From assembly GCA_040381655.1 (NCBI GenBank), contig JBEIGW010000002.1:1-35810 (forward strand): a stretch of DNA of 35,810 nucleotides, read 5' to 3'. Of the stretch, positions 17,672 to 35,493 are shown one piece after another. Positions within the stretch are counted from its first letter, which is position 1. Every line of letters begins with the position of its first letter. The stretch is from Deltaproteobacteria bacterium (GTDB taxonomy: Bacteria > Bdellovibrionota_B > Oligoflexia > Oligoflexales > RGVZ01). Both the position numbers and the translations under genes were made by a program. The notes under the pieces were generated by a model. It ran no database searches. It had not been told where the DNA came from and saw nothing but the letters and a program-made list of their open reading frames with translations.

Positions 17672-17703
17672 ATTTTATCGTATATATTTTTACATAAGTT
17701 CAT

Positions 17704-18135
17704 TTGATTATCGGAGGAGTTTTGAAAAAATCTTTAACTGAAAAAGTTGACCTTCTAGAGATTTCTAAGGTGCTTACCGAAGTCGAAGAGATACGAAGTG
17801 TAATTTCTGAAAATGTTAGTGAAGAAGAATTTAAAAAAACTTTAAAACAAGTAAAAGAGGGAAAGCTCGACGGTTTTCGAGGCGAAGTCATATACGGATT
17901 CATTGAGGACTGTATACGCGAGGGAGGAGAAGAGGTTGATTCCTTTAGCATAAATCGGGGCGGAATCGACCATCAAGTTGAATTAGTTATTTATGAATAC
18001 TTCGGAATTTATTTTATCGAGGGAATGTACCTTGATCCAATTGGATATTTTTATACGAAAGAAGCTGCAATTTCCTTTGCTTACCATCATTGGAATAAAG
18101 ATAAAAAAACGCAAGATTGGCGCCAGGATTTATAG
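17704..18135 (+). CDS. hypothetical protein (AT-rich)
   Basis: 143-aa ORF with a TTG start at 17704, or TTG at 17722 preceded by GGAGGAG (17713-17719). No motif recognised. Confidence 0.5.
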   Translation: MIIGGVLKKSLTEKVDLLEISKVLTEVEEIRSVISENVSEEEFKKTLKQVKEGKLDGFRGEVIYGFIEDCIREGGEEVDSFSINRGGIDHQVELVIYEYFGIYFIEGMYLDPIGYFYTKEAAISFAYHHWNKDKKTQDWRQDL

Positions 18136-18702: not shown

Positions 18703-18711
18703 GTCATTACC

Positions 18712-20616: not shown

Positions 20617-20693
20617 TGGTCACTACATCCATGGAAGAAGCGACCTAGATTATTTATATATTCGTACATCTTTTGAACGATTTTGGATTGCTG

Positions 20694-20722
20694 AGGCATG
20701 GGCGTTCTGCTTGCCCATGCCT
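20694..20722 (-). terminator. 10-bp GC-rich hairpin between the vWA and transglutaminase-like genes (attenuator/terminator candidate, no U-tract)
   Basis: AGGCATGGGC-gttctgctt-GCCCATGCCT, 44 nt downstream of the vWA stop on the minus strand. No T-run follows on either strand. Confidence 0.35.
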
Positions 20723-20765
20723 ACAGACGATGATCGTTGAATCACTTCAAGCTTTTTTGGCGAAT

Positions 20766-23075
20766 TTAGAGGTTTTGCCTAATGATCAATTCATTAAAGT
20801 CTAGTGTCTTAGGATCATCTTCCAGTGTGCCCCAGCGATCTTCATGAACCTCTGGCAAACAGGCGCTGAGACGATCATGGATTTCGTCTTTTATGTCGTC
20901 CTGTAAGACGGAAAGAGTATGGTCTAACAGTCGCTTGACCTGCCGAGGGGCGACCTTTGTGTGGTCCAAGGCGCCGATGAGCCAGTCGAGGAATACAGCC
21001 CATGCGAGAACGCGATCATTGAGCTCGGTAGAAATTACACCGATCAGCTCTTCAATCTCCGATGGCAAGCCACAATTCAAAAAGCGGGTGATGGCATCTT
21101 CAAAGTCAGTGTAAGTTAGTGCCACATCCTCCAAGATAGACAATAAGGCCATTGGCTCAATGCCGAACATCTCAGGATCAGCTTGCCGCCGCATATAGCT
21201 GGGAGTCTCGGAGCTTGAAAGGAATTGAGCCATTTTGGACGATCGTAGTGGGGCAGAATATGCCATCGAATACAACACCCTGCTAGCTGATATCTGCACT
21301 GGCCGGACCGATCCCAATCCATGCCAACCGGCGGCCACCATTTGCTGTATTTGGTGCGGTTCTGGTAAACCTAGTGCTTTGTCATCCGAGACACGTTGAA
21401 CTACCATGAAGAGGTTGGTGTGCTCGGTAACGAGCTGATACTTTATTGCTATCTGACTTGCAGCTTCGGTGTCGGCAGCATCACGCAACAGTTTGGCACC
21501 TACGATTCGTGTGAGTGTGGATGTTGTCGGGGCTAAATCTAATCCGGCCTGAGGGGCTGCTGCGCCGTCAGTAGTTGACGACAAGATGAGGTTGATTGCA
21601 GCAGCAGTAACTACCGGCACTTCGCTGGGCTTGTCTTCAAGAATTGCAGCTAGATGGATCATCTCTCCTGGGTAGACGACTTTCGGGACTGGGGAGTGCC
21701 AGACAACTGACGTATGCCAATTTACAGATAGTCCGGCCACGATGCCTTGGCGCATTCGGTTAACCATGCGCTGCATAGCCGCGGCCATGTCCTCATTCGG
21801 TGACACAAACGCGCAAGCGCCATCACTATGTTCAGTAATCTCGCGCAGCAGACTTTCAGCTGGGGAGCTACCTACGCCAATCGCAAAGATTCTATGATTG
21901 GATTCCCTAGCAGACTGAATGATATTCTCAATATCCCAGACCTCGCCGTCCGTAATTAACAGTACATTGACCGGCCGCTCTCTGCGCTCACTCGTGATGT
22001 TGAATGTGTCCGTTAGTGCAGCATGCATCTCCGTGCCACCGAGATCGGCGGAGGTTTTATCAATGGCAGGCTCCAGAGATTTTGCCTTGAACTCAGTCGT
22101 TGCTGATGTGAGTTTCCCAACCACGCGACGGGGCTGGCTGCCAAACAGGCTGTAAGAGACTTTGTCTGCAGAGCTCAATAATGGCATGAGCGTCCTCAAG
22201 CCATTGCGTGCAAGCTCAATACTGTCACCTTCCATCGATCCCGAGCAGTCAACCAAGATCTTCAACTCAATTTCGGAAGAAAGTGTATTGGCCTCTTCAT
22301 TGAATACAGGAGTAAAACTTAATAGTGCTGGATACTCATCACCGTCCTTTGCCAGGGAAAAAACACCTTGGCTTTGAACGTCATCAATGACGATGACCAG
22401 ATCGCGATCGAGATAGCCTTCTCGACTCATGCTGACTACGGACTGATCATTGTCGTTGTGAATACTGGTTTGATGACTCGGGCAACTGATCGTACCTTTT
22501 GCAAGGTCTCCACCAATAGTAAGAGTCAATGACAATGGATAAGAAGCTGCGAGACTGGCATCCACAGAAGCAGGTTTTTTTAATTTGCCTGTTTTGAAGG
22601 GATCGCCATAACGAGGCGCGACAGTTGTTGGGATAGACAGACGCACCTGGCCTTGTTCGATTCTCAGCAATTGCGCGTATTCGATTTCAATCATGGCCTC
22701 TTCATCAGGCTTTAAGTTGCCCATGTGAGCCGTATATAGACCTTCGCCTGATTTCTCGACCATGATCGGCGTGTCGCCTTCTTTAATAGCCTTCTCGTAA
22801 TTTTCTTCGGCTTCAGTTTTCGGTAGAACAGTACCTTGCCAGGTTTTTCCTGCCATCGTAGCGGTCAGGCCCAGTAACGTACATTCCCAAGCCAACGGAA
22901 AGGTATAAATCGTCTCGATATTCTTCTTTGTCGTGTTCTTATAAAACTGACGTGCCTTAACTGTGAAAAGTAGGCCATCAACGCTTGCTACGATGTCGAC
23001 CTTTTGCAGCAGTACAGGCTGACCTTTCGTTCCTTCAAGTATGGATTTTTGAATTGTTTCGGTGGATGCAGACAT
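20766..23075 (-). CDS. VIT + von Willebrand factor A domain protein with unknown ~300-aa C-terminal region
   Basis: 769 aa with a GAGGT SD. The N-terminal VIT-like region is VDIVASVDGLLFTVKARQFYKN...YTFPL...EKSGEGLYTAHMGNLKPDEEAMIEIEY. The vWA MIDAS motif is LVDCSGSMEG, followed by ...LITDGEVW. No signal peptide. Confidence 0.85.
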   Translation of the reverse strand: MSASTETIQKSILEGTKGQPVLLQKVDIVASVDGLLFTVKARQFYKNTTKKNIETIYTFPLAWECTLLGLTATMAGKTWQGTVLPKTEAEENYEKAIKEGDTPIMVEKSGEGLYTAHMGNLKPDEEAMIEIEYAQLLRIEQGQVRLSIPTTVAPRYGDPFKTGKLKKPASVDASLAASYPLSLTLTIGGDLAKGTISCPSHQTSIHNDNDQSVVSMSREGYLDRDLVIVIDDVQSQGVFSLAKDGDEYPALLSFTPVFNEEANTLSSEIELKILVDCSGSMEGDSIELARNGLRTLMPLLSSADKVSYSLFGSQPRRVVGKLTSATTEFKAKSLEPAIDKTSADLGGTEMHAALTDTFNITSERRERPVNVLLITDGEVWDIENIIQSARESNHRIFAIGVGSSPAESLLREITEHSDGACAFVSPNEDMAAAMQRMVNRMRQGIVAGLSVNWHTSVVWHSPVPKVVYPGEMIHLAAILEDKPSEVPVVTAAAINLILSSTTDGAAAPQAGLDLAPTTSTLTRIVGAKLLRDAADTEAASQIAIKYQLVTEHTNLFMVVQRVSDDKALGLPEPHQIQQMVAAGWHGLGSVRPVQISASRVLYSMAYSAPLRSSKMAQFLSSSETPSYMRRQADPEMFGIEPMALLSILEDVALTYTDFEDAITRFLNCGLPSEIEELIGVISTELNDRVLAWAVFLDWLIGALDHTKVAPRQVKRLLDHTLSVLQDDIKDEIHDRLSACLPEVHEDRWGTLEDDPKTLDFNELIIRQNL

Positions 23076-23187
23076 TTTTACCTCACGAGTAAGTGGGATA
23101 CATCAATCAGATTAGTAACTGGATCAAGCACTGCCTTAAAGTAGGTAGAGCGTGTGTTGCAAGGTGTGATTCGCGGCCTACATAAAA

Positions 23188-23577
23188 TTATTGATTGAAC
23201 ATTGCCGGTTCGCGACCGACGACGTGTGAGCCTGGATCATCAATGTGGGCAACGGAGGAGGGTCCATTGGGGATGAGCCAAGCACAGGGAAGAGTGAGTC
23301 CGCCGAACATGGATTCGTACACACAAAAATCCACCCAGCACAATTCCCCGCCTACCTGCGCGCGGCCCGTTAAGCCTAGTCGTGTCCATTGATCTACCAG
23401 AGCTGCGATACCAGAAGGGCTCATAGCGCCGTCACGCAGCAAATACTGGTCATGCCACACTCGTCCCCCAATCAAATGGGCATGGTCTTTCAAACAACGC
23501 TCCCAACCGCCGGGATATTTGGCGCGTATTGCGCTGATGTTGACGATGAAGTCGATGAATTCGGTCTGAATCGCCAT
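23188..23577 (-). CDS. hypothetical protein (GC-richer), downstream of palindrome site 3
   Basis: 129-aa ORF with a GAGG SD 6 nt upstream of the ATG. No motif recognised. Confidence 0.65.
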   Translation of the reverse strand: MAIQTEFIDFIVNISAIRAKYPGGWERCLKDHAHLIGGRVWHDQYLLRDGAMSPSGIAALVDQWTRLGLTGRAQVGGELCWVDFCVYESMFGGLTLPCAWLIPNGPSSVAHIDDPGSHVVGREPAMFNQ

Positions 23578-23654
23578 GGCTAGCCTCGGTCAGTTATAGA
23601 TTTGTAAATAAACACGCATCATCGTGCGCGTTAAGAATCGTTATACCGACCATC

Positions 23655-23672
23655 AGGCTCAAAGACTGAGCT
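23655..23672. promoter_or_regulatory. operator-like palindrome, site 3 (AGGCTCA-AAGAC-TGAGCT)
   Basis: An 11/12 match. On the minus strand, TATAAC (23645-23640) lies 10 nt from the core and points at the 129-aa ORF. Confidence 0.7.
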
Positions 23673-23698
23673 AGCAAATTTTCACAAAAATATATTTC

Positions 23699-23716
23699 TG
23701 GCTCAACTAATGAGCC
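23699..23716. promoter_or_regulatory. operator-like palindrome, site 4 (TGGCTCA-ACTAA-TGAGCC)
   Basis: Perfect 6+6 match. TATACT (23727-23732) lies 10 nt downstream and points at the SprT-like gene (ATG 23779). The centre of this site is 44 bp from the centre of site 3. Confidence 0.75.
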
Positions 23717-23778
23717 TGGCGATTTTTATACTGATCTTAGAAACAAAGTTTAAATATCTATCAATTTCGAGGTCTTGA

Positions 23779-24366
23779 ATGGCGATAAAACCCACAACCC
23801 GGGAGTCTTGGCTGGAAGCTGCGGTTCAGGAATTAATACCGATTTTTGCCAAAGCTGGCTTCGCGGTCCCTTTGTGTAGGGTGTCCTGTGGATTTGCGAG
23901 CACTGGGACAAGGAGCGGCCATATTGGCCAGTGCTGGAGTACGAAAGCGAGCAAAGACGGAATAAACCAGATCTTTGTGTCCCCTGCATTGGAGGACGCC
24001 ATTGAGGTGCTCGATACTTTGGTCCACGAACTAGTTCATGCCGTGGACGATTGCCAGCATAAGCATGGCAAAGAGTTTAAAAAAATAGCAATTAAATTAG
24101 GAATGACTGGGCCAATGCGCAGCGCAGGCGCCGGACCAATATTGAAAGAGAAACTAAAGGAGGTGGCGGGCAGGCTTGGGGCTTATCCGCATGCCAGGCT
24201 ATCCGTACCCATGAAGGCCGTGACCAGATCGCCGCGGCCACGAGCAAAGTGCCAAAAATGTGGATTCACAGTCCCAATGCTAAAAGACTTTTTGCATTAT
24301 GGGCCGCCAATATGCCCGAAAGACCGGGTAGAGATGGATGCGATCGGCGATTGGGAAATAGCTTAG
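23779..24366 (+). CDS. SprT-like zinc metallopeptidase domain protein
   Basis: 195 aa with a GAGG SD. The HExxH motif sits in LDTLVHELVHAVDD, followed by HGKEFKKIA. The N-terminal GFAS...GQCW...IFVSP pattern and a C-terminal CQKCG...ICP zinc-ribbon remnant are typical of SprT-family proteins. Confidence 0.75.
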   Translation: MAIKPTTRESWLEAAVQELIPIFAKAGFAVPLCRVSCGFASTGTRSGHIGQCWSTKASKDGINQIFVSPALEDAIEVLDTLVHELVHAVDDCQHKHGKEFKKIAIKLGMTGPMRSAGAGPILKEKLKEVAGRLGAYPHARLSVPMKAVTRSPRPRAKCQKCGFTVPMLKDFLHYGPPICPKDRVEMDAIGDWEIA

Positions 24367-25340
24367 CGTTCGTATTGCCGGGAGGCGGCTTCATGCTCCC
24401 GGTGTACCTTGTCACGCAGGGCTTTGGGAGAAAGGACCTTAACTGCAGCACCATGTTTGGCGATATCAAGCAGGAGTTCGCGGTCGTCAGAATAGGGGAA
24501 TTCAAGAATATAAGCGCCAGACTCATCAAATGAGCCCCTTTGGTCAGGATGCCAAAGCTCAGCAGCTACCCAGCGGGCGCGCTCAGGGGTAAATTTCAGT
24601 TTTGCAGTATGTTTGGATTTACCTGCAAAGATGCCGTAGCTGACAGCAAGATATTGGTCGAGAGATTTGATGGATACATCGATAGCTTTTTTATTGACAG
24701 GGTTGATAGCGCGTATGCCATCCAGAGAAAACCCGCGGAGTCCGTCTCTTAGATGACACCAGGCATCCAAGTACCAGTTGTCTCGATAGTGAATTAAACG
24801 CTGAGGAGAGATTTCGCGGAGGGTGATTTCGTTACTTGCTCGAGCATAGTATTGGATTTCGATGCGTTGTCGCTTGAAAAGGGCAACCCCAACTTCGGAG
24901 AAGAAATGACTGCCTTGAACGCGACGGCCCATATCAACCAGCTTAATTCGCTTGCGAATTTCTTTGGACGAGGATTCGCCTTCGCCAATGACTGCATCGA
25001 GACGCGATAGAAAGGGTTGAATATGTGGCCCGATGATACTGCCTTGATCGAGGTTCTCGAGCAGCTGCTGCATGGTGATTAGCGCAAAGATCTCTTGCTC
25101 GGAGAACCAAAGACCGGGAAGTGAAAACTTGTTCTTGCTGTTATTGGTGCTCTCGTAGCGATATCCCCGAAGGTCGGTGTCGTAGACCACCGGAGCGTTA
25201 AAGCGATCGCGCATATATTCAAGGTCGCGCTTGAATGTGGCAAGCGACACTTCAAGAATCGAAAGAAAAGAGTCACGACTGACGATTTTTCGATCTTGAA
25301 GAACTTGATCGATTTTATAGAAGCGTTCGAGGCGGTTCAT
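24363..25340 (-). CDS. WYL-domain transcriptional regulator, paralog 2
   Basis: The track ORF runs to 25379. I prefer ATG 25340 (MNRLERFYKI...) because GAGGA sits 7 nt upstream and the resulting length (326 aa) matches paralog 1. Motifs are VSLATFKRDLEYMRDRFNAPV and SPQRLIHYRDNWYLDAWCHLRDGLRGFSLDGI. Its stop overlaps the SprT-like stop (TTAG at 24363-24366). Confidence 0.9.
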   Translation of the reverse strand: MNRLERFYKIDQVLQDRKIVSRDSFLSILEVSLATFKRDLEYMRDRFNAPVVYDTDLRGYRYESTNNSKNKFSLPGLWFSEQEIFALITMQQLLENLDQGSIIGPHIQPFLSRLDAVIGEGESSSKEIRKRIKLVDMGRRVQGSHFFSEVGVALFKRQRIEIQYYARASNEITLREISPQRLIHYRDNWYLDAWCHLRDGLRGFSLDGIRAINPVNKKAIDVSIKSLDQYLAVSYGIFAGKSKHTAKLKFTPERARWVAAELWHPDQRGSFDESGAYILEFPYSDDRELLLDIAKHGAAVKVLSPKALRDKVHREHEAASRQYER

Positions 25341-25404
25341 TAAATTTTCCTCATATTTTAACCACCGGCCTAGGATCACTCCAGAGTTAACGAGCTTAAA
25401 GACC

Positions 25405-25442
25405 CTTCATCAAAAAATGTGGCCACTATTTTTTAAATGAAG
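25405..25442. other. AT-rich imperfect palindrome between the ATPase gene and WYL paralog 2
   Basis: CTTCAT-CAAAAAATGTGGCCACTATTTTTTAA-ATGAAG, centred on GTGGCCAC. It could be a weak terminator or a protein-binding site. Confidence 0.3.
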
Positions 25443-25561
25443 AAACAAATAAAAAAATAAACTGTTTTTCAATTTAACCGATGTAACGAATACAACTTGC
25501 TACACAACTAGTTTACCTCTGACTAAGGTTTCAAAAAACGTGCAAAAAAGAGGCTCAATAA

Positions 25562-26884
25562 CTACCGGAGAGGTGATGAAAGCGACCGTATGATGGGCTG
25601 CTGCATCTCAGTTCTTGGCCAGTCCGCAGCAGGAGTTGTACCCCCCAATGCAACTGCCATACGAGCTCGTGATGCATCAACCTCAAAACCTCTTGGTGTA
25701 GTCACCTCTGTCTGTGATGAAGTTAACTTTGCATCCCCCATAGCGACAATGCCACCGACAATTTTTCTTAAGAACTGAAGATTTGCGCCTCCGCCTGCGA
25801 AAACTACGTCAAGATGAGAAATGCCGTGGTTTGAAGCGTGAAGTTGTGCTTTAAAGCGGGAGCCCGCGTCCTCAAGCATTTCCCTGATTGCCGTTTTTAA
25901 ACCACTTGCCATTTTTTGGAGTTTGTCTGTGCGGACGAGTTCTTCTCGCGAAATTTGTACCTGCCGGAAAACCAGATTGCCAGTCTCGAATAGCGTTTCT
26001 TTAGAGCGGCGAATATCATTTTTCAGTGCTGCAAGGTCAATACCGCTATTTGGACCGAGCCTTTCTGCAACTAATTTTATTAGAGCGTGGTCGATTTCAT
26101 CTCCTGCACCGAACAAGCTACGTGCAGGTGTCATCGGAATAAGCTTTCGGGTTACCTTCGAATATTCATCTGGTAAAACAGAGACAAATAGACCGAGGTC
26201 GATGGTGCCCGCCCCGACATCCACGACTAAAGTTGCGCTACGATTGTTTGGGGAAGGATCTTGAAGCAACTCAAGCGCCGCAGCAACAGGTTCTTCAACC
26301 TCAACATCGAAGGATGGTTTTTTTGATGCTTGACTTGCTTTTTTATACCAGAGGTTAAATTGATCAGTACTCATCTCTTGCATTATCGTAGACCCAGTAG
26401 CGCTGAATGCGATACGTCCGAGTTGATCGTAAACAACGGCTATTTTTTGTCGATCTGAGGTACTCCAGACGGGATGACTTATGCGATACGAGAGAGTGCT
26501 AGTTTTTAACTTGAAAATATTTTTACCTGCAGCTATGGAGTCTTGTACTGCCAGCGCTAGTAAACCAGCGATTAGTTGAAATCGGGGAAATGGTGCGCTA
26601 CTTACTTCCGACTGATATATCTTAGAGATGTTTGAGGGACTGAGCCAGGATTTTGGGCTTGATTCAAAAAGCAATCGTGGCTGGGCAGAAAGACCTGCCT
26701 CAAGTGCTTTGTCACCAAAGAAAATCTTATCGCCAGCAATTGGAATAAAGATAGCGCTAGGGATAGATGCATTATCAATTTGACTTCTAGGTGCAATTGC
26801 AAGCGGATGCGATACCGAATCCTTTTGTTTTCGTATTGCGGCTCTAATAGAACTGGTCCCGAAATCAATGCAAAGAGTGTCCAC
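25562..26884 (-). CDS. Hsp70-family (DnaK/YegD-like) nucleotide-binding-domain-only ATPase
   Basis: 440 aa. GTG start with an AAGGTG SD 5 nt upstream, 11 nt after the stop of the preceding gene. Motifs: CIDFGTSSIR (phosphate-1), VEEPVAAALE (the Hsp70 EPTAAAL motif), VVDVGAGTIDLG (phosphate-2), FGAGDEIDHALI (GGxDFD-like), and VVFAGGGANLQFL (adenosine). No substrate-binding domain. Confidence 0.85.
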   Translation of the reverse strand: MDTLCIDFGTSSIRAAIRKQKDSVSHPLAIAPRSQIDNASIPSAIFIPIAGDKIFFGDKALEAGLSAQPRLLFESSPKSWLSPSNISKIYQSEVSSAPFPRFQLIAGLLALAVQDSIAAGKNIFKLKTSTLSYRISHPVWSTSDRQKIAVVYDQLGRIAFSATGSTIMQEMSTDQFNLWYKKASQASKKPSFDVEVEEPVAAALELLQDPSPNNRSATLVVDVGAGTIDLGLFVSVLPDEYSKVTRKLIPMTPARSLFGAGDEIDHALIKLVAERLGPNSGIDLAALKNDIRRSKETLFETGNLVFRQVQISREELVRTDKLQKMASGLKTAIREMLEDAGSRFKAQLHASNHGISHLDVVFAGGGANLQFLRKIVGGIVAMGDAKLTSSQTEVTTPRGFEVDASRARMAVALGGTTPAADWPRTEMQQPIIRSLSSPLR

Positions 26885-26895
26885 AAAATCACCTT

Positions 26896-28245
26896 TCAGT
26901 TCACTGGGAAGACCAATGCACGAGTCAGAACTCTTTGGGAATTATCGCTTCTCAACAGTCGAACGCCAGGTATTTCAATGCGAACGTTAGTTGGTGGTTG
27001 CGCGCTGCTATCTCCAAGAAAATGTTGAAGCGGCTGATACTGAACTAAATCTCCCTTTGAACCATACATTTCTATTTTTGCTTTGCTCGCAACTAGATTA
27101 ACTAAAGCACTCACTTCTTTTGCGACAGACGGATCGGGAAGATCGGAGCAGTACCGATACCAAGAAATCAAAAGGGCCGCTATTTGTTCCTGAATTCCGG
27201 AATGAGCGGATAGTTCATCGCTGTCTTCAATCGCAGGATCTTTAGTCGGTAAAAGGATGGCTTTAACTAGTTCTCTATCTGATAGAAATTTTGCCGAAAT
27301 TTTTTCTATTGGTAAGCAATGGGAGGCAAATGCTAATAGCTCTCTGACCTCGACAGTATTATTCATGCCATGCATTTTTACGTGCTGTAGCACAGTGCTT
27401 ACTATTCGCGAGCTTAGAGGGTTAAGATTTTTTTGTAGTGGTTTCGGTAAACCGCCTGGCTGCCTCGAAAAGATTGTCAGGCCTTGAAGCGTTTTTTCAC
27501 TAAGCAGTATTGTCGGCTCGCGAGCGCTTATCGTTTCCAAAATTCCGAGCGTAGATTTTTGAATTTCAATAATAGCTTTCGAAGAATAGTGAGTTCTTTG
27601 ACTAAGGTCGACTACCGACGAAGCCAAATTAGAAAACTCCTCCCCGAAATAACCACCTGATTCGATTTCGCGCGATGGTAACAACTTAGCTACTAATTTA
27701 AGTACTTGATTAACGCGATCAAGATCGGTTGTGTGATCCGCCCGAATTATGCTCGACAGTTCCTTGACTAAATCAGCATACGTAGTGCTGGACCCGATAG
27801 CCAATTTTACGAGTTCGTTGGCAAGTACTTTGCTTGTTTGTGTATTTATTGCTTCTTTTAGGGCATAAGAAATCTTCCAGCTTGCTTTTAATGGTCCCAA
27901 AAATTTGATAGCGCCAATCCGCTCGTCATCGTTAGCTAAGGTGTTCAAGGCGGGTGGAGCAGTATCAATCCACCGTAGCGGTCGGATTTTTTGCTTGGCA
28001 GCAGACTTGCTACCTTTAGCGATCGCCAATCCAATAAGCCCGAGGCACTGATACGCAAGTACTTCATCGGTTTCTTTTTGAAGTTTTATTGCAAGCAGAT
28101 TCACCTTCCGATCGATTTCGTCACCGAACTTCTGGTCAATCTTTTTTTTGTTCAGTGGTAGCAGCGATCGCAATGTAGCAATGATTTCGACTGTATCTGC
28201 TTCGTTGCTTGCGGGTGAATTCGAAGATGGGGTAGATGTAGTCAT
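26896..28245 (-). CDS. hypothetical 449-aa protein, predicted all-helical, partner of the Hsp70-like ATPase
   Basis: Long uninterrupted ORF, translationally coupled to the ATPase gene. Ser/Thr-rich N-terminus, then Leu/Ala/Lys-rich segments. No catalytic motif recognised. Confidence 0.75.
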   Translation of the reverse strand: MTTSTPSSNSPASNEADTVEIIATLRSLLPLNKKKIDQKFGDEIDRKVNLLAIKLQKETDEVLAYQCLGLIGLAIAKGSKSAAKQKIRPLRWIDTAPPALNTLANDDERIGAIKFLGPLKASWKISYALKEAINTQTSKVLANELVKLAIGSSTTYADLVKELSSIIRADHTTDLDRVNQVLKLVAKLLPSREIESGGYFGEEFSNLASSVVDLSQRTHYSSKAIIEIQKSTLGILETISAREPTILLSEKTLQGLTIFSRQPGGLPKPLQKNLNPLSSRIVSTVLQHVKMHGMNNTVEVRELLAFASHCLPIEKISAKFLSDRELVKAILLPTKDPAIEDSDELSAHSGIQEQIAALLISWYRYCSDLPDPSVAKEVSALVNLVASKAKIEMYGSKGDLVQYQPLQHFLGDSSAQPPTNVRIEIPGVRLLRSDNSQRVLTRALVFPVN

Positions 28246-28392
28246 TTTATTATCGTTTTGTGTGCCGTAACCGCATCATTATCAATATAAATCTCAGTCT
28301 CAGCGAACTGCGATGTTTTCAAAAAAATAAAAATCATTAATCAACGTAAAAATCTGACGTTGCTGAGAACTAGAACAATTCTTGCTCACAGC

Positions 28393-28410
28393 AGGCTCAT
28401 CAAGTGAGCC
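28393..28410. promoter_or_regulatory. operator-like palindrome, site 5 (AGGCTCA-TCAAG-TGAGCC)
   Basis: Perfect 6+6 match in the 488-bp divergent region between the 449-aa/ATPase operon (-) and the PLD-SNF2/MTase operon (+). AAGAAT (28383-28378, minus strand) lies 10 nt from the core. The weaker CATCAT (28421-28426) lies 10 nt away on the plus side. Confidence 0.75.
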
Positions 28411-28498
28411 TAGTATTGACCATCATTTCCTTTGATTCAATTAGACAATTTTGGCCTGCTTTCCAATATACTGGAAGCAATATTTTTTTAGAGAAATA

Positions 28499-28705
28499 AT
28501 GATGGCTAAGCAGCCGTTCACCGCCTCCACCGTTCGAGACGTTTTCGGCGTTCCTGCCTGTTAACGAAAAAACGATCTATAGGCTTCCCCAAAAAGGAAA
28601 TCTTCTCAGTTTTAAGGTGTCGGATGCTTGGCGTTTTCGGCGCCAGACCTAGATGCTTGAATTGTTGATCGCAAAGTTTTGGCCTCAGGTGGCAAGCGGA
28701 CTTGA
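28499..28705 (+). pseudogene. decayed excisionase-family (HTH_17/AlpA-like) helix-turn-helix gene
   Basis: Three frames together read MMAKQPFTASTVRDVFGVPA / VNEKTIYRLPQKGNLLSFKVSDAWRFRRQ / DLDA*IVDRKVLASGGKRT. That requires a +1 shift near 28555-28562, a second shift near 28645, and a TGA (28658) where this family has Trp (DLDAW). The EKTIYRL...FKV...WRFRR..DLD.W pattern is the hallmark of the family. Confidence 0.55.
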
Positions 28706-28733
28706 AACCCTAAGCTAAGCCACAGGAAAAACT

Positions 28734-31700
28734 ATGCCAAGAATATTTGACAACATCGAAAAGCAACTCCTCCCCGCGCTGCAGGAGACAATGAAGGTTG
28801 CTGAACGCGCCGATTTTTGCGTGGGCTACTTCAATTTGAGAGGCTGGAGGAATCTGTCGCCGCATGTTGAAAAATGGAACGGTAGTGATGGTAATTGCTG
28901 CAGATTGCTTGTTGGAATGCATGTAAATCCGAGCGATGAGCTGAGGCAGTCGCTTCGCCAACGCGAGGATGATGAAGGGTTAGATAATCAGACGGCAGTT
29001 CGAGAAAAACGTCGTATTGCAGAAGAGTTCAAGCAACAATTAACATTCGGAGTCCCGACCAACGATGATGAAGCATCACTTCGACAGCTGTCCCATCAAA
29101 TCAGAAGCAAGAAACTGGTTGTCAAGGTCTACCTGCGTCATCCCCTGCACGCAAAACTCTATTTGCTTCACCGAAATGATGTAAATAATCCAGTCACTGG
29201 ATTTTTAGGGAGCTCGAATTTAACGCTCGCTGGTCTGTCAAGGCAGGGCGAGCTCAATGTAGATGTCTTAGAACACGATGCATGCAACAAGCTAGTCGAT
29301 TGGTTTGAAGATCGATGGAAAGATCGATGGTGTGTTGATATTTCAAAGGAGCTGGCCGACATCATTGACGAAAGTTGGGCTGGTGAGCGACTTATTTCTC
29401 CATACCATGTCTATTTAAAGATCGCTTATCACTTGGCCCAAGAGGCGCGCGCCGGGCTCTCCGAATTCACGATTCCGAAAATATTCGGCAAGGAGCTTTT
29501 TGATTTTCAGGTTGCGGCGGTAAAGATTGCTGCCCACCATTTAAATAAAAGAGGTGGCGTACTCATTGGCGACGTCGTTGGTTTGGGTAAGTCCATGATG
29601 GCAACTGCACTTGCCAAGGTTTTCGAAGAAGACCATCAAACCGAGACGTTGATCCTTTGCCCTAAAAACCTGGTTCCAATGTGGGAAGACTATGTCTTTC
29701 GCTACAGACTTCAGGCAAAAGTTCTTTCGCTATCGAAAGCCATGGCAGAGCTGCCAGAAAAGACACGTCGCTACCGGGTCGTGTTGGTTGATGAATCGCA
29801 CAACTTGCGCAACAAAGAAGGCAAGCGCTACAAGGCAATCCGGGAGTACATAGAGCGGAACGACAGCCTATGCATTCTTCTGTCTGCGACCCCCTACAAC
29901 AAGACATACATCGATCTCTCATCGCAACTCTCTTTGTTTCTCAGAGAAGATGCCGACATTGGTATTCGACCCGAGAAGTTAATTAGCCACCTCGGCGGAG
30001 AGCATGAATTCATTCGACGGTATCAGTGTGCCGTGCGATCGCTTACAGCTTTTGAAAAGAGTGATGATGCAGACGATTGGCGCGACTTGATGCGCCTATA
30101 CATGGTGCGTCGTACGAGAGGCTTCATCATGCAGCACTATGCAAAAAGCGATGAACGGGGGAAGTACCTGCTGTTCTTAGATGGAACTAAGTCATATTTT
30201 CCCAAGCGAATACCTAAAAATTTAAAGTTCTCCATAAAAGGGGCAGACAAGTCCGATCCTTACGCTCGCTTTTACTCAACGACAGTAGTCGATGCAATCA
30301 ACGCCCTGGCATTACCCCGATATGGGCTGGGCAATTACGTCGCGAACAAACCAAAATCACCCCCAACACCAAATCAAGCGCACGTCATTGAGGGCCTTTC
30401 GCGTGCGGGCACACGATTGATGGGTTTTTGCCGCACCAATTTATTCAAGCGACTCGAAAGCGCAGGCCCCACCTTTTTGCTTTCAATTGAGAGGCATGTC
30501 TTGCGAAACTTTATTGTGATGCACGCAATAGAAAATGGCTTTGATATCCCATTAGGCACACAGGGGGCCGAACTACTGGACACCCAAACAAATGATGAGG
30601 ATCCAGACGATATTTTGGCGGGAGCGGAAGATGAAGAAGACGTATCAGGCGATGAAGAGGTCGTCACCAACATAACAACGTCCCTGCGCACAGAGGATGC
30701 CTTCCGTGCCCGTGCTGCCAAAGCGTATACGGCTTACTCGGGGCCTTTTAAGAAGCGATTTAAATGGCTGCCTAGCTCTTTGTTCATGGGCGATCTATTT
30801 AAGGACTTGCAGGCAGATGCATTAAGCCTCATGGCTGTCTTGCAACATTGTGGCGAATGGGATCCAGCCAGAGACTCAAAACTCGCCGAGCTAGCAAAAT
30901 TGGTTCGCACAACACATAGCAAGGAGAAAATTTTAGTCTTCACTCAATTTGCCGATACAGCGCGTTACGTCAAAACACAGTTAGCTGCGATGGGCGTTAC
31001 GCAAATCGAAGACGCAACGGGAAAGACTGGCGACCCTACCAGCCTTGCATGGCGATTCTCACCAGAATCAAACAAGAAGCTGGACACCATTAAATCATCC
31101 GATGCGCTGCGCGTATTGATTGCCACTGACGTGCTCTCCGAAGGCCAGAACCTACAAGATGCGCACATTGTCGTTAACTACGATTTACCTTGGGCCATCA
31201 TCAGACTAATCCAACGCGCTGGTCGTGTAGACCGGATTGGCCAAAAGGCAGATGAAATTTTCTGTTACTCATTTGTTCCGGCAGACGGCGTTGAGACTCT
31301 ACTTCAATTGCGTGCCCGTGTCCGCAAACGCCTAAAAGAGCAAGGCGAAGTTGTAGGATCTGATGAGACCTTTTTTGATGACGAGACAAACGAGCAATCT
31401 ATACGAGACCTGTATACCGAGAAGAGTGGGATTCTTGATGACGATGGGGATAACGAAGTGGACTTAGCTTCTTATGCCTACCAAATTTGGAAAAACGCTA
31501 TTGACGCAGATCCAGCCATTGCCGCGGCCATCGAAGCTATGCCTGATGTCGCATATGCCACCAAAGCTCACGTCGAGACGCCAAAGGCCCCTAAGGGAGC
31601 CTTGGTCTACATGCGTACTGCGCAGGGTAACGATGCGCTGGCTTGGATTGATCGAGCCGGTGAGTCAGTTACGCAATCTCAACTGACCATTTTGCGAGCA

Positions 31701-32129
31701 GCGGCATGTGCTCCCAATACCGAAGCGCTGCCACGCACTGAACATCACCATTCCCTTACACAAAAGGGGTTGGCGCACATTATTCAAGAAGAGAAATCAT
31801 TTGGTGGTGCATTGGGACGCCCGTCGGGGGCTCGTTTCAAGACCTACGAACGCATCAAGCGTTACCGCGACAAGTTAGGCAGCGCGAGAGACCTCTTTAT
31901 TACTGATGACCATGTCAGGCGCATTGAACGTACGCTTGAGGAAATTTATAGATTTCCTTTGTACCAGACAGCGACTGACACACTGAATCGCCAAATCAAA
32001 ACAGGCCTTGCAGATCAGGAGTTGGTTGATCTCGTACTTTCATTGCGTGAAGATGGTCGCCTGTGCTTGATAGATGAACAAGAAGCCAATCGTGAATCTA
32101 AGCTGATCTGCAGTATGGGCTTGGCTTGA
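28734..32129 (+). CDS. PLD-family (HKD) nuclease domain fused to SNF2-family helicase/translocase
   Basis: 1131 aa with an AGGAAAA SD. N-terminal PLD motif HPLHAKLYLLHRND...GFLGSSNLTLAGL (H139/K141 at nt 29148). SNF2 motifs LIGDVVGLGKSMMA, VVLVDESHNLRN, and LLSATPYNK. Helicase-C motifs KILVFTQFADTARYV, LIATDVLSEGQNLQDA, and LIQRAGRVDRIGQ. Confidence 0.92.
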   Translation: MPRIFDNIEKQLLPALQETMKVAERADFCVGYFNLRGWRNLSPHVEKWNGSDGNCCRLLVGMHVNPSDELRQSLRQREDDEGLDNQTAVREKRRIAEEFKQQLTFGVPTNDDEASLRQLSHQIRSKKLVVKVYLRHPLHAKLYLLHRNDVNNPVTGFLGSSNLTLAGLSRQGELNVDVLEHDACNKLVDWFEDRWKDRWCVDISKELADIIDESWAGERLISPYHVYLKIAYHLAQEARAGLSEFTIPKIFGKELFDFQVAAVKIAAHHLNKRGGVLIGDVVGLGKSMMATALAKVFEEDHQTETLILCPKNLVPMWEDYVFRYRLQAKVLSLSKAMAELPEKTRRYRVVLVDESHNLRNKEGKRYKAIREYIERNDSLCILLSATPYNKTYIDLSSQLSLFLREDADIGIRPEKLISHLGGEHEFIRRYQCAVRSLTAFEKSDDADDWRDLMRLYMVRRTRGFIMQHYAKSDERGKYLLFLDGTKSYFPKRIPKNLKFSIKGADKSDPYARFYSTTVVDAINALALPRYGLGNYVANKPKSPPTPNQAHVIEGLSRAGTRLMGFCRTNLFKRLESAGPTFLLSIERHVLRNFIVMHAIENGFDIPLGTQGAELLDTQTNDEDPDDILAGAEDEEDVSGDEEVVTNITTSLRTEDAFRARAAKAYTAYSGPFKKRFKWLPSSLFMGDLFKDLQADALSLMAVLQHCGEWDPARDSKLAELAKLVRTTHSKEKILVFTQFADTARYVKTQLAAMGVTQIEDATGKTGDPTSLAWRFSPESNKKLDTIKSSDALRVLIATDVLSEGQNLQDAHIVVNYDLPWAIIRLIQRAGRVDRIGQKADEIFCYSFVPADGVETLLQLRARVRKRLKEQGEVVGSDETFFDDETNEQSIRDLYTEKSGILDDDGDNEVDLASYAYQIWKNAIDADPAIAAAIEAMPDVAYATKAHVETPKAPKGALVYMRTAQGNDALAWIDRAGESVTQSQLTILRAAACAPNTEALPRTEHHHSLTQKGLAHIIQEEKSFGGALGRPSGARFKTYERIKRYRDKLGSARDLFITDDHVRRIERTLEEIYRFPLYQTATDTLNRQIKTGLADQELVDLVLSLREDGRLCLIDEQEANRESKLICSMGLA

Positions 32130-32133
32130 TCAC

Positions 32134-35100
32134 GTGCTTAATAACAAAGAAAAAATGACCATTGACGCCGCTCAATTTCAAAAACTCCTGAATGAGTTTC
32201 AACTCAGCCGCTTATTTGTCAACGAACTTGGCTGGGACAACCCCAACCTGCGGGACCAGCCTGTACTGGTCAATGGTCATACCTTTACGTTAACGCACGT
32301 TGCACACAAACGTGGTGTCGCTGTCTTTATGTGCTCACCAGATGCCTTGGGGTCTGTTCCACCTAGAGCCACGCTCCTAAAAATTGAGAAGGAGGCCACC
32401 AAGCTTTCTTATGAACATTTATTAATTTTTGTCGATTCTTCGCAAAAGGTGATGACATGGTTATGGGTAGCTCGTGTACCTGGCCAACCCGCAGCAACTA
32501 GAACCCACACGTGGCACAAAGGCACCAGCGGCGAAGCATTGCGCCAAAAGCTAAATCAAATCGTCTGGTCCCTGGAGGAGGAGGAGGCTATTACCTTGAC
32601 GGATGTCATCAAGGGTCTGCGCAGTGCCTTTGATCGTGACCGTGTTTCTAAGCGTTTCTACGATTATTTTAAGAGCGAGCATCAAGCCTTTTCCGAGTTC
32701 ATTCAAGGAATAGAAGCAGCGACGGATCAAGCTTGGTATGCCTCGCTGATGCTTAACCGCTTGATGTTCGTGTACTTCATCCAGCAAAAAGGGTTTTTGG
32801 ATGGTAACCCGAACTACCTTTCGGATCGGATGGCAACTGTGCGCGAGCAGGCCGGAAAGGGAAAATTCCATACCTTTTATCGTCAGTTTCTGCTACGACT
32901 TTTCCATGAAGGACTAGGGCAACACAAAAGAACTCGCGTCACTGATCTGTCAAAACTGATCGGTGACGTACCCTACCTCAACGGAGGACTTTTTGACGTG
33001 CATGAGTTGGAAGTCGCCCACCCTGACATCGACATCCCAGATGAAGCCTTTCAGCGACTGTTCACTTTTTTCGATGCCTACGACTGGCATCTTGATGACC
33101 GGCCTCTGTCTTCGGGCAGCGAGATTAACCCCGACGTACTCGGCTACATCTTTGAGAAGTACATCAACCAGAAGCAGATGGGGGCTTACTACACGAAGGA
33201 AGATATCACAGAGTACATCAGCAAGACCACCGTTATACCGCATCTGCTCGATCAGGCGCGGGAGCGCTGCAAGGTAGCCTTCGAAGGCGATTCGTCTGTT
33301 TGGTCTCTGCTCAAGTCTGACCCTGATCGTTATATTTATCCAGCCATGAAAATAGGTGTCATTGATGCCTGTGCTGAGGTTGTTCCCGTAAATGTACTTC
33401 CCGACTTTGTGCAAACTGGAATATTCAATCCCACGGCGCGTATGTTTGAGCGGAGCTACAACCTAGGCGAAGCCGCCTTCCAGTTTACGGCTAGCAATGG
33501 CGTAATGCAGCGCGGTACTCTTCCCACAGAAACTTGGCGAGAATATGTAGAGCGCCGGAGCCGTTGTTTGGCTATCCGGGACAAGTTGTCCAGAGGGGAA
33601 GTGAAAAGCGCTGAAGACCTTATCACGCTGAATCTCGACATCCGCCAGTTCATGCAGGACCTGATAGACACCTGCAACAGCCCCGATCTGTTACGCGCGA
33701 TCTGGCAAGCCATCGTTGGACGCCTAGCGGAGAGGTCTAACGATAAGTTCCGCCACGGTATTGCCATCCTCGATCCCACCTGTGGCTCAGGCGCTTTTCT
33801 CTTTGCCGCACTCAACGTGCTTGAGCCGCTTTACGAGGCTTGCTTAGACCGCATGGAAGGATTTGTGGAGGACGCTAAGAAGCTAGGTAAATCGGGGGAT
33901 GCCGACTTCATTAAGATACTGGAGGAGGTGGGACACCATCATTCACGCAGCTATTTCATTTACAAAAATATTATCCTGCACAATTTATTTGGCGTGGATA
34001 TCATGGCTGAGGCAGTAGAAATTTGTAAGCTGCGCCTCTTCCTCAAGCTGGTGTCCCAAGTTGACGCCGGGCGCGAACTGGAACCGTTGCCCGACATCGA
34101 CTTCAATATCCGTGCTGGCAATACTTTGGTAGGCTATGCCACAGAAGCGCAGTTCGATGCCGCAAACACTCTCGCCAGCGACCAGACGCATCGGGCAGAA
34201 ATTAAGGCAAGTACTGCTGATTTGGCGGATGCATTTGATTTCTTCCGTCAACAACAGACTGTTCACGGAGGCAAAGTCACGGCAGATGACAAGCGCAAGT
34301 TGCGCGACAAGTTGAACGGCCTGAGCCTGGAACTTGATCGCTACCTCGCGCAGGACTATGGCATCGACCCAAAAAAGAAAAATGAGTTTACCGCCTGGCG
34401 AGCAAGTCATCAGCCTTTTCATTGGTTTGCTGAATTCTATGGAGTTATGCGTGATGGCGGCTTCGATGTGGTGATCGGGAACCCGCCATATCTAGAAGTG
34501 CGTGAAGTCGAGTACTCACTTGGCACATTCGCTTCCCGAGACACGAACGCCATACATGCAATGTGCATGGAAAGAAGCTGTGATCTCTTGTCGCCTAGTG
34601 GAGCGATAAGCATGATTGTTCCGCTTGCGCTGCCTTCAACTCAAAGGATGCAAGTAGTTCAAAAGATTATTGAACAGAAACGTTCTGCATGGTTCTCAAA
34701 CTTTGCTTGGCGACCTGCTAAGCTCTTCGACACTGTCAACCGAGCGTTGACTATATTTGTTGCACTCTCGTCTACTGCTCCTAGAAGTGCCTCAACAAAA
34801 TACATTAAGTGGACAAGCACTGATCGCAACGGGCTTTTTGAGCGCCTTGTTTATGCCGAAGTAGATCGTATAAGACCATCGTTTTGGGTTCCAAAACTAG
34901 GGACGTCAATAGAGACAACCATTCTAAGTAAACTCATGTTAGCTGACTCAAAGGCTAGAAACTTTTTTGGACGGTCGCAAGGACGAGTCTATTACCGTTC
35001 AACTGGAGGACTGTATTGGAAAGTATTCACAGATTTTGCCCCCGCTTTCTCTGTAAATGGGAAATCCGGAAGCAGTAGCCGTGAAACTAGCTTTTCTACG

Positions 35101-35493
35101 GTAGCTATCGAAAATGCCACTGTATTGGTTGGTATTTTGAGTAGCAATCTTTTCTGGTGGTGGTACACCATCACATCAAACCTGCGCGATCTAAATCCAA
35201 CCGACATTCAGGAGTTTCCTTTGCCTCGCGCAGCCTTAGCTTCGCCAGAGATCAAATCTTTGTCAATGGAATACATACAAGATTTGAAGCGAAATAGCGT
35301 AATGCTTGCGCGAAATCAAAAGTCTACGGGAAGAACTGAAACCCAAAGTTTCAAAATTAGAACATCAAAATCCATAATAGACAGCATTGATATCGAGCTT
35401 GGGAAACTACTGTGTTTAGGAGATGATGAGATCGATTTCATAGTCAACTATGACATAAAGTATCGTATGGGCACGTCCGACGAGGAAGAATGA
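32134..35493 (+). CDS. large N6-adenine DNA methyltransferase (Eco57I/type IIG-like MTase + target-recognition region, no nuclease domain recognised)
   Basis: 1119 aa. GTG start at 32134, 4 nt after the SNF2 stop, with an alternative ATG at 32155. Motifs: LMLNRLMFVYFIQQKGFL...YLNGGLF, GAYYTKEDIT, motif I ILDPTCGSGAFLF, FGVDIMAEAVEICKLRLFLKL, and motif IV VVIGNPPYLE. The C-terminal ~350 aa are variable and TRD-like. Confidence 0.92.
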   Translation: MLNNKEKMTIDAAQFQKLLNEFQLSRLFVNELGWDNPNLRDQPVLVNGHTFTLTHVAHKRGVAVFMCSPDALGSVPPRATLLKIEKEATKLSYEHLLIFVDSSQKVMTWLWVARVPGQPAATRTHTWHKGTSGEALRQKLNQIVWSLEEEEAITLTDVIKGLRSAFDRDRVSKRFYDYFKSEHQAFSEFIQGIEAATDQAWYASLMLNRLMFVYFIQQKGFLDGNPNYLSDRMATVREQAGKGKFHTFYRQFLLRLFHEGLGQHKRTRVTDLSKLIGDVPYLNGGLFDVHELEVAHPDIDIPDEAFQRLFTFFDAYDWHLDDRPLSSGSEINPDVLGYIFEKYINQKQMGAYYTKEDITEYISKTTVIPHLLDQARERCKVAFEGDSSVWSLLKSDPDRYIYPAMKIGVIDACAEVVPVNVLPDFVQTGIFNPTARMFERSYNLGEAAFQFTASNGVMQRGTLPTETWREYVERRSRCLAIRDKLSRGEVKSAEDLITLNLDIRQFMQDLIDTCNSPDLLRAIWQAIVGRLAERSNDKFRHGIAILDPTCGSGAFLFAALNVLEPLYEACLDRMEGFVEDAKKLGKSGDADFIKILEEVGHHHSRSYFIYKNIILHNLFGVDIMAEAVEICKLRLFLKLVSQVDAGRELEPLPDIDFNIRAGNTLVGYATEAQFDAANTLASDQTHRAEIKASTADLADAFDFFRQQQTVHGGKVTADDKRKLRDKLNGLSLELDRYLAQDYGIDPKKKNEFTAWRASHQPFHWFAEFYGVMRDGGFDVVIGNPPYLEVREVEYSLGTFASRDTNAIHAMCMERSCDLLSPSGAISMIVPLALPSTQRMQVVQKIIEQKRSAWFSNFAWRPAKLFDTVNRALTIFVALSSTAPRSASTKYIKWTSTDRNGLFERLVYAEVDRIRPSFWVPKLGTSIETTILSKLMLADSKARNFFGRSQGRVYYRSTGGLYWKVFTDFAPAFSVNGKSGSSSRETSFSTVAIENATVLVGILSSNLFWWWYTITSNLRDLNPTDIQEFPLPRAALASPEIKSLSMEYIQDLKRNSVMLARNQKSTGRTETQSFKIRTSKSIIDSIDIELGKLLCLGDDEIDFIVNYDIKYRMGTSDEEE

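Follow-up and report, generated by a model that had tools for sequence, protein, structure and literature searches.

What might an Hsp70-type nucleotide-binding domain (NBD) do when it is encoded beside a large helical protein, away from chaperone genes and next to a restriction-like operon? The question is raised by two adjacent genes, here called A and B, on a 35,810-nucleotide (nt) stretch of a Deltaproteobacteria bacterium (order Oligoflexales; assembly GCA_040381655.1, contig JBEIGW010000002.1, positions 1 to 35,810), and we refer to the whole of this stretch as the window. On balance, we favour the reading that A and B make up a self-contained, horizontally mobile accessory module, a short-form and divergent clade of the PADLOC candidate PDC-M61, in which an Hsp70-NBD switch would be combined with a GrpE-like/solenoid partner.

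Structure and linkage of the gene pair

26896..28245, minus strand: gene A, 449 amino acids (aa), ATG start (open reading frame, ORF)
26885..26895, minus strand: A-B junction of 11 nt, AAGGTGATTTT, containing the Shine-Dalgarno sequence AAGGTG (sequence reading)
25562..26884, minus strand: gene B, 440 aa, GTG start (ORF)

Read on the minus strand, the junction is TGA-AAGGTGATTTT-GTG, with AAGGTG placed 5 nt ahead of the GTG, and since homologues of B begin M-x-T-[LI]-C-[IV]-DFGTSS, the GTG start of B is correct. A first-pass annotation of the window, made from its letters alone, had given these ORF coordinates, the 11-nt gap, the Shine-Dalgarno sequence and the start codon, all of which stand on the sequence and on the N-termini of the homologues. 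Its remark that the pair lies away from dnaJ, grpE and hsc genes also holds, none of the 29 window ORFs scanned having matched a DnaJ, GrpE or Hsc family.

The linkage of A to B, which had been proposed from this one locus, is strict wherever we followed it. A lies directly upstream of B in all of the approximately 20 distinct loci checked first and in 43/43 metagenomic loci having upstream DNA, and throughout the fetched loci, those of the canonical PDC-M61 clade included, an A-family ORF stands immediately upstream and on the same strand for every true B (E < 1e-25). Nearly all relatives have a short gap between the two genes, most loci falling between -65 and +53 nt and the close ones having 11-12 nt.

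Protein B and the Hsp70 fold

All five ATPase motifs reported by the first-pass annotation are present in the translation of B: DFGTS (residues 7-11), EEPVAAALE (197-205), DVGAGTID (222-229), GAGDEID (259-265) and FAGGGANL (362-369). Across 40 homologues, D7, G9, T10, K78, E198, D222, G224, G226, T227, D229 and G364-366 are invariant, and the phosphate-1, connect, phosphate-2 and adenosine motifs stay invariant in homologues as low as 31% identity; D7, K78, E198, D222, T227, D229 and G364-366 are the counterparts of the Hsp70 catalytic residues. An AlphaFold2 (AF2) model of B built from 40 homologues has pLDDT 88.5 and pTM 0.88, and its best 50 neighbours in the Protein Data Bank (PDB), found with Foldseek, all belong to the Hsp70 family (DnaK, BiP, Hsp72, Ssb and the Hsp110 Sse1, 3c7n). 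Hsp70 chains are matched at E ~2e-14 and ~15% identity, with TM 0.58-0.69 when normalised on NBD-only chains, and the Hsp70 lobe architecture of the actin-like NBD is present. The C-terminus of B lies ~25 residues beyond the last NBD element, so that the substrate-binding domain (SBD) is absent by both the AF2 model and the Foldseek matches to NBD-only chains, which bears out the earlier description of B as an Hsp70-type ATPase without that domain.

By its sequence, B reads as a distant member of the ASKHA superfamily that falls short of the thresholds of the Hsp70 family. Its matches to MreB, MamK and DnaK are all below threshold (MreB_Mbl at 17 bits against a cut-off of 27, MamK at 28 against 400), NCBIfam DnaK models score ~19 bits against cut-offs of 648-822, and Pfam PF00012 (HSP70) does not match at all. 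Taking sequence and model together, B is an Hsp70-NBD-like and probably active ATPase without an SBD.

These same sequence-level matches, the best of which are to MreB, MamK and actin-like ATPases, would also suit a different account, in which B is an actin-like filament ATPase of the MreB, ParM or MamK type, A is its adaptor, and the two serve to place or partition a mobile element or some structure of the cell; polymerisation is common among ASKHA ATPases that have no additional domains. We regard this as very improbable, because the top 50 structural matches of B are all Hsp70-family proteins, no centromere-like repeat array was seen adjoining the pair, its neighbours are restriction-like systems, and mobile elements yielded no homologue: A was not found by tblastn in 72,556 plasmids or 50,697 phages, and a scan of IMG/VR contigs returned no homologue of the pair.

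Among the homologues of B there are also longer proteins of 480-914 aa (P0060, P0067, P0069 and P0076; loci L010, L167-L169 and L186-L189), and some of ~483 aa carry a precomputed assignment to Pfam PF23548. One B-homologue sequence in alignment A1 has an N-terminal extension with a zinc-ribbon-like CxxC...CxxC motif.

Protein A, a solenoid with a probable GrpE-like tail

A as a whole matches no Pfam or NCBIfam model, and the first-pass annotation had found no motif in it that it could recognise. An exhaustive phmmer search of 1.84 billion proteins recovers 116 cluster representatives of A relatives at E<=1e-3, nearly all of them 430-455 aa long and matched over their full length. The AF2 model of A (60 sequences; pLDDT 90.2) has two parts.

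27241..28218, minus strand: A residues ~10-335, all-helical HEAT/ARM-like solenoid (DSSP on the AF2 model)
26905..27231, minus strand: A residues ~339-447, GrpE-like tail, putative nucleotide-exchange module (AF2 model, hhalign)

The best-conserved stretch of A, aa ~47-237, contains the family-invariant residues R91 and W123. When the whole model is compared with the PDB by Foldseek, it yields weak helical-repeat matches only (TSC, Ric-8A and importins; E 2e-3 to 8e-2, TM ~0.2-0.3). The tail is predicted by AF2 and DSSP to fold into two helices (339-367 and 372-388) followed by seven short strands, a helix-helix-beta order that agrees with GrpE. The likeness of its family consensus (..A.LLPAWD.F ... 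GVE.fG..GEvv.YDPL.H.L ... P..V.I.rPGV...R.DGS.RVL.kALV) to the GrpE signature was first spotted by eye, and then tested.

Aligned profile to profile with hhalign, using GrpE alignments of 8 and then 83 real sequences drawn from PDB alignments and a genome scan, the tail matches GrpE residues 86-190 over 90-92 aligned columns (P 3e-4). The alignment spans both bundle helices of GrpE and its beta domain, and the motifs LLPxxD, GVE, DPxxH, G and RxL..AxV are collinear within it. The score of 28.3 is to be set against at most 20.5 for the 31 controls, made up of the reversed profile and 30 column-shuffled ones. Searching in the reverse direction, a hidden Markov model (HMM) of the tail matches real GrpE sequences from the set of 83 at E 3e-4 to 9e-3. 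When 52 A-family tails were compared with 18,950 NCBIfam models, GrpE was the sole recurring family among 16 weak matches, with three models and a best E of 0.001; the GrpE matches are themselves weak (E 0.001-0.1).

From these profiles and the model we consider it likely that the tail of A is a GrpE-like exchange-factor domain, and the view of A as a protein without recognisable motifs gives way to that of an alpha-solenoid with a probable GrpE-like domain at its C-terminus. Several results weigh against the assignment, and with it against the favoured reading of the pair. The Pfam GrpE model (PF01025) matches neither A nor any of 52 C-terminal domains, HMMER profiles of whole A and of its tail return designed helical bundles and noise only when run against all PDB sequences, the hhalign probability is only 40%, and the DPxxH motif is degenerate (APKYF) in canonical PDC-M61A. 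GrpE is also missing from the list that Foldseek returns for the whole A model, because the solenoid dominates that comparison.

The resemblance is one of domains, and A is not a housekeeping GrpE. Set beside DnaK-GrpE (PDB 1DKG), B shares the Hsp70 NBD fold and its catalytic residues, and the ~105 C-terminal residues of A align to GrpE 86-190. Unlike that machine, the pair has no J-protein, B has no SBD and only ~15% identity to Hsp70, in A a solenoid of ~330 residues takes the place of the long N-terminal helix by which GrpE dimerises, and the genes are rare and of an accessory kind. The first-pass annotation had noted that A might prove to be a known co-chaperone; the GrpE-like domain goes part of the way towards this.

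Family membership and distribution

The first-pass annotation knew of no described defence or repair system built on such a pair. Both proteins match a PADLOC candidate, A through the PDC-M61A model PDLC04730 (E 5e-13, only aa 47-237) and B through the PDC-M61B model PDLC04731 (E 3.3e-35, aa 190-416 against profile positions 323-556 of 588), and the N-terminal ~120 positions of the PDC-M61B profile have no counterpart in B. A family HMM built from the window clade finds canonical M61A at E 1e-10 to 1e-23, and canonical M61 pairs (L011, L012, L016) match the PADLOC models at E 1e-106 to 1e-164.

The window pair resembles PDC-M61 in its A-then-B order, its tight spacing and its embedding in or beside helicase-methylase systems, and like canonical members it has a beta domain at the C-terminus of A and an ASKHA core in B. 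It differs in length, since window A has 449 aa against ~490 and window B has 440 against ~560-590 (550-585 aa in L011, L012 and L016), the N-terminal extension of ~100-120 aa of canonical B being absent. Judged on sequence, the window pair belongs to a shorter, divergent clade of PDC-M61. Because the models cover A and B only in part, a formal PADLOC system call is uncertain, and the A protein of one close relative (L048) was missed by PADLOC.

The PDC systems are 145 untested candidates, taken from genes that sit within BREX, DISARM or type I restriction-modification (RM) systems (Payne et al. 2024, bioRxiv 10.1101/2024.01.29.577857). Only one paper naming PDC-M61 was found, which gives no more than its counts for Pseudomonas genomes, and no published fold or mechanism for it was found in the literature.

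Of 185,579 species genomes searched with clade-specific patterns, ~10 carry the pair, most of them from Burkholderiales, and it is rare and patchy rather than core. A group of ~350-aa actin/MreB-like proteins without an A partner (L017-L045), pulled in as relatives of B by a generic DxGxGT pattern, was discarded. The labels of two relatives are at odds with their content: contig JAIXQF010000007.1 (L046/L133) is binned as 'Actinomycetales bacterium' yet shares the window pair and its flanks at high identity, its other relatives lying in Burkholderiales, and the environmental contig CAMATZ010000026.1 (L048/L135) is labelled 'Bordetella parapertussis'. Mis-binning or mislabelling of these metagenome-assembled genomes is likely.

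Genomic context across loci

Is the pair part of the operon beside it, or a unit of its own? The accessory context proposed by the first-pass annotation is confirmed, and shown to be defence-like, by the families of genes that neighbour the pair across loci. For this analysis, loci were grouped into 60 clusters at 90% B identity, and the context counts, given here per lineage, use the 38 clusters with at least 8 kb of sequence.

Any SNF2 helicase near the pair (within 10 kb): 19/38 lineages
A-B followed by a co-directional DrmD-like SNF2 helicase and a ~540-600-aa protein: 12/38 lineages
WYL regulator near the pair: 7/38 lineages
Hma-like embedding (DUF1156 methylase, DUF499 ATPase, GmrSD): 4-5 of 38 lineages
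BREX (BrxA/B/C, PglZ, BrxL) near the pair: 4/38 lineages

The four-gene cassette in the second of these lines occurs at L004:8640-16234 and at L052, L140, L162, L173-L175, L177, L178, L181, L008, L146 and L150, and is also found without other defence genes nearby. Its helicase is ~1040 aa long and matches PADLOC DrmD at E 3e-301. The fourth protein, of 540-600 aa, has no Pfam or PADLOC match; hhalign relates it to B as a distant paralogue (probability 97.8%, E 8e-13, 375 columns), and it keeps the ASKHA motifs.

In the window itself, the divergent operon of PLD-SNF2 and methyltransferase (MTase) and the WYL regulator after B, both named in the first-pass annotation, were found by Pfam and PADLOC. 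The two operon genes lie outside the module and are listed as context.

28734..32129, plus strand: PLD-SNF2, 1131 aa, divergent from A-B (Pfam, PADLOC)
32134..35493, plus strand: Eco57I/type IIG-like MTase, 1119 aa, same operon as PLD-SNF2 (Pfam, PADLOC)
24363..25340, minus strand: WYL2 regulator (WYL+WCX), 325 aa, 221 nt 3' of B (Pfam WYL 1.2e-17, WCX 6.6e-15)

The start of WYL2 is most likely the ATG at 25340, which gives the 325 aa seen in homologues, rather than the GTG at 25379.

From this arrangement the first-pass annotation had suggested that A, B, PLD-SNF2, the MTase and WYL might act as one multi-gene system. In its strict form, this would be one obligate restriction-like system driven from a shared operator. 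The frequency of SNF2 helicases near the pair and of the co-directional cassette speaks for such a system, as do the recurrence of the PLD-SNF2 and MTase cassette in L047 and the fact that PDC-M61 was itself defined through embedding in BREX, DISARM or type I RM. The closest relatives tell against it. To the right of the pair they share a conserved set of genes (WYL, a SprT-like gene, a 129-aa gene, VIT-VWA and a transglutaminase-like gene), and the pair is 84-92% identical beside a left slot that changes, being occupied by PLD-SNF2 and the type IIG-like MTase in the window (28734-35493) and in L047, by HKD-SNF2/DUF4391/MTase/Res in L001 (L001:1-8380), and by BrxA/B/C in L046 (L046:127-5199). 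Since the L046 pair, at least 90% identical to that of the window and with the same right flank, stands beside BREX in place of PLD-SNF2 and the MTase, the genes do not form one obligate system. In L048 the pair stands alone, with metabolic genes around it and no defence neighbour, the WYL gene is missing from most loci, and the window PLD-SNF2 and the DrmD-like helicases found in the four-gene cassette are alike only in a generic way (E ~1e-22). We therefore hold the single obligate system to be quite unlikely.

The PLD-SNF2/MTase region is a variable defence slot beside a conserved flank, and A-B is an autonomous unit at a defence hotspot rather than an obligate part of the operon. The first-pass annotation had proposed counting how often homologues of the pair lie next to SNF2 or MTase genes, and the count cuts both ways: an SNF2 gene is near the pair in half of the lineages and directly downstream in the 12 with the cassette, and the PLD-SNF2/MTase cassette is not a constant companion. 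The affinity of the pair for SNF2-based machines is too frequent to ignore. The DISARM core proteins DrmA, DrmB and DrmC were not found in the scanned interval 18226..35493, where similarity to DISARM is partial, DrmD-like or DrmMI-like, and confined to PLD-SNF2 and the MTase.

A conserved operator and the WYL regulators

The first-pass annotation had marked a palindrome between the two divergent operons, with a hexamer AAGAAT 10 nt away on the A-B side, and both are present.

28394..28410, no strand assigned: operator palindrome GGCTCA-N5-TGAGCC, GGCTCATCAAGTGAGCC, candidate WYL-regulator site
28378..28383, minus strand: putative -10 hexamer AAGAAT, 10 nt beyond the palindrome on the A-B side

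Allowing at most one mismatch, the window holds six palindrome sites (8254-8270, 12222-12238, 23656-23672, 23700-23716, 24520-24536 and 28394-28410), compared with a mean of 1.1 in shuffled sequence, and 0/100 shuffles reached six. The sites precede a 225-aa gene followed by DnaB, the operon of a second WYL regulator (WYL1) and an SF1 helicase, the operon of the 129-aa and VIT-VWA genes, the SprT-like gene and A-B, with two palindromes 44 bp apart between the divergent 129-aa and SprT-like genes. In the window, L001, L046, L047 and L142, a palindrome lies 164-185 nt upstream of the A start with invariant arms and a variable N5 spacer, and it is the best-conserved block of the region upstream of A; [AC]AGAAT recurs at the same spacing from it in 4/5 aligned loci. 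At five of the window's six sites, the palindrome and a TAnnnT-like hexamer (GATAAT, TATAAC, TATACT, TATTCT, AAGAAT) are separated by 9-10 nt, and at the sixth (8254) an AATAAT-like hexamer is 10-11 nt away. This spacing indicates that the operator takes the place of the -35 element. Between A and SNF2, a simple sigma-70 scan detected no promoter of consensus type. As a repeated and conserved sequence at promoter positions, the palindrome reads as a genuine conserved operator, and it is the probable binding site of the WYL regulator or regulators of the island.

A 4/6 -10-like hexamer also stands 10 nt from palindrome 28394 on its SNF2 side (CATCAT in the window, TATGCT in L047), which would suit the one-system proposal, and L046 carries a second palindrome that belongs to its BREX side, which would not. 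The argument that one palindrome serves one direction, so that the SNF2 operon is not co-regulated, was tried and dropped, 4/6 -10-like hexamers being found at 10 nt on both sides; sharing of the operator with the SNF2 operon, or bidirectional control, is possible.

Like the regulons of PafBC/DriD and of BrxR/CapW, the window combines HTH-WYL-WCX regulators, here the two paralogues WYL1 and WYL2, with a palindromic operator that is repeated at six promoter-like positions and conserved in relatives. The closest solved relatives of WYL2 are PafBC (6sj9, 1.3e-18), PafC (7p5x), CapW (7tb5) and DriD; WYL1 is likewise closest to PafBC/PafC among solved structures and also matches DriD, the CapW match being found for WYL2 only. 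PafBC and DriD are activators that sense single-stranded DNA (ssDNA) and bind just upstream of the -10 element, and CapW and BrxR are WYL repressors of defence systems. To our knowledge, GGCTCA-N5-TGAGCC matches none of the published WYL operator motifs.

The first-pass annotation had supposed that WYL2 might be the third gene of the A-B transcript. Simple scans of the spacer between B and WYL2 found neither a terminator-like site nor a consensus promoter. Two opposite-strand genes lie between B and WYL in L001, so that co-transcription of A-B with WYL2 is not a conserved feature, and a WYL gene is near the pair in few lineages. WYL2 is a candidate regulator of the palindrome regulon and not an obligate part of the pair.

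The regulators also bring in a further explanation, that the pair belongs to a DNA-damage or ssDNA-stress regulon of the PafBC/DriD type and serves tolerance of DNA or protein-DNA damage rather than anti-phage defence. Both WYL proteins are closest to PafBC/PafC and also match DriD, all of them activators of the DNA-damage response. An operator directly upstream of the -10 element with no -35 element is the promoter geometry of PafBC, and it is the arrangement seen here. Other genes behind the palindromes are of a DNA-metabolism kind, among them the SprT-like gene, the SF1 helicase with its PD-(D/E)xK and RNase H-like domains and the 225-aa gene followed by DnaB, and SprT-like homologues lie near the pair in 10/38 lineages. 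Other observations run counter to this explanation: beyond the close clade, the palindrome and the WYL genes are absent and the defence neighbours persist, the pair is rare and patchy rather than core, and WYL regulators of the BrxR/CapW type also control defence, CapW 7tb5 being among the matches. We judge membership of a damage regulon in place of a defence role unlikely, and note that damage-tolerance and defence roles of the pair are not mutually exclusive.

Several features of the surrounding DNA are recorded here in their own right. The 221-nt spacer between B and WYL2 (window 25341-25561) is AT-rich, with runs of T and A. Palindrome 24520-24536, with TATTCT downstream, lies inside the 3' end of WYL2 and is conserved in relatives (L001:14922, L046:9162); transcription starting there would be antisense to the SprT-like gene, which is convergent and overlaps by 4 nt, and the palindrome is possibly an internal or antisense promoter. 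At window 18226-23577 on the minus strand, behind palindrome 23656, an operon encodes the 129-aa protein, a VIT+VWA protein (769 aa), a DUF3857+transglutaminase-like protein (634 aa) and a 158-aa protein, and the 129-aa/VIT+VWA operon is syntenic in L001, L046 and L047. At window 12308-18135 on the plus strand, the WYL1 operon includes the SF1 helicase, a protein of 1162 aa with N-terminal PD-(D/E)xK and RNase H-like domains, whose helicase part resembles Mokosh MkoA (PADLOC 7.9e-51). No Rfam families and no tRNAs were found in the window.

Comparison with other Hsp70-based conflict systems

Two groups of published systems come near to the pair. CoCoNuT CnuD has an Hsp70-like NBD and SBD with HEAT-like repeats and occurs in type IV McrBC-like systems (PMC11090510). 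Compared by description, CnuD/CnuCD and A-B have in common an Hsp70-like ATPase with HEAT-like repeats in restriction-type loci and higher-order links to SNF2/PglX-type systems. They differ in that CnuD is a single polypeptide with the SBD kept and degenerate Walker-like motifs, whereas A and B are two proteins without an SBD and with invariant catalytic residues. Scans of the window ORFs with Pfam and PADLOC found no McrB-like NxD GTPase, McrC/DUF2357, HEPN or coiled-coil nuclease.

The predicted conflict systems centred on GAP1-N2 GTPases include HSP70, GrpE and an NBD-only HSP70 paralogue (Kaur et al. 2020, PMC7159879), and so offer a precedent for the recruitment of Hsp70, GrpE and an SBD-less Hsp70 paralogue to this kind of system. 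Unlike A-B, they are built on TRAFAC GTPases, with FNIII/DnaJ/TPR proteins and a bona fide GrpE, none of which is in the window, and they occur mainly in Actinobacteria and Firmicutes.

A proposed mechanism

How might such a module work? An intact catalytic site in a protein without a client-binding domain points to an ATP/ADP-driven conformational switch rather than a folding chaperone, and this is most likely what B is. A would be its dedicated partner. The tail of A resembles the part of GrpE that pries the Hsp70 nucleotide cleft open, and we infer that A uses this GrpE-like domain to bind B and controls how fast ADP leaves and ATP rebinds. The solenoid is likely a binding platform for a target or for a partner machine, so that the binding of a ligand to it would be coupled to the nucleotide state of B. 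That state may in turn gate an output on DNA-translocating restriction-like machines, SNF2-type translocases being the most plausible. In the 12 lineages with the four-gene cassette the partner machine would be the DrmD-like SNF2 helicase with the second B paralogue, and elsewhere Hma, BREX or PLD-SNF2/MTase; alternatively, the pair may act on its own.

In the window lineage, the GGCTCA-N5-TGAGCC operator, attributed to a PafBC/DriD-like WYL regulator, appears to stand in for the -35 region of the A-B promoter, and the presence of such an operator at the promoter makes it probable that expression of A-B is induced by a nucleic-acid stress signal, for example phage infection or DNA damage.

Further points tell against A-B as a switch-and-partner module of this kind and against its presumed anti-phage role. 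The main gap is that no nuclease, toxin or other effector domain is recognisable in A or B. The co-regulated genes include DNA-metabolism proteins, which fit a DNA-damage regulon as well as defence. No experimental report on PDC-M61 or its relatives was found in the literature, and another PDC pair, PDC-M63AB, was inactive when tested.

A bolder proposal, which we put forward tentatively and regard as doubtful, is that A-B is the core of an unrecognised class of immune ATPase switch, in which a minimal Hsp70 cycle, made up of an NBD-only ATPase and a dedicated GrpE-like exchange factor joined to a solenoid sensor, would be detached from folding and would license or assemble SNF2-type translocases, namely the DrmD-like helicase with the second B paralogue and Hma, BREX or PLD-SNF2 systems. 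In the window lineage, an ssDNA-sensing WYL activator would turn this cycle on. We found no prior description of the GrpE-like domain, of the four-gene cassette of A, B, an SNF2 helicase and a B paralogue, or of the geometry of the WYL regulon.

Hsp70 machines are protein-folding chaperones, and if the proposal is true, a bare Hsp70 NBD with its own exchange factor serving as an immune signalling or licensing switch would be a new use of the fold. It would also open a first way into the mechanism of PDC-M61, an untested PADLOC candidate already included in genome-survey counts. The recurrent cassette in which A-B is joined by an SNF2 helicase and a B paralogue may offer an entry to the control of helicase-methylase defence systems such as DISARM, Hma and BREX-like ones, and the six-site palindrome regulon of the window would be a tractable case of a defence hotspot under WYL control.

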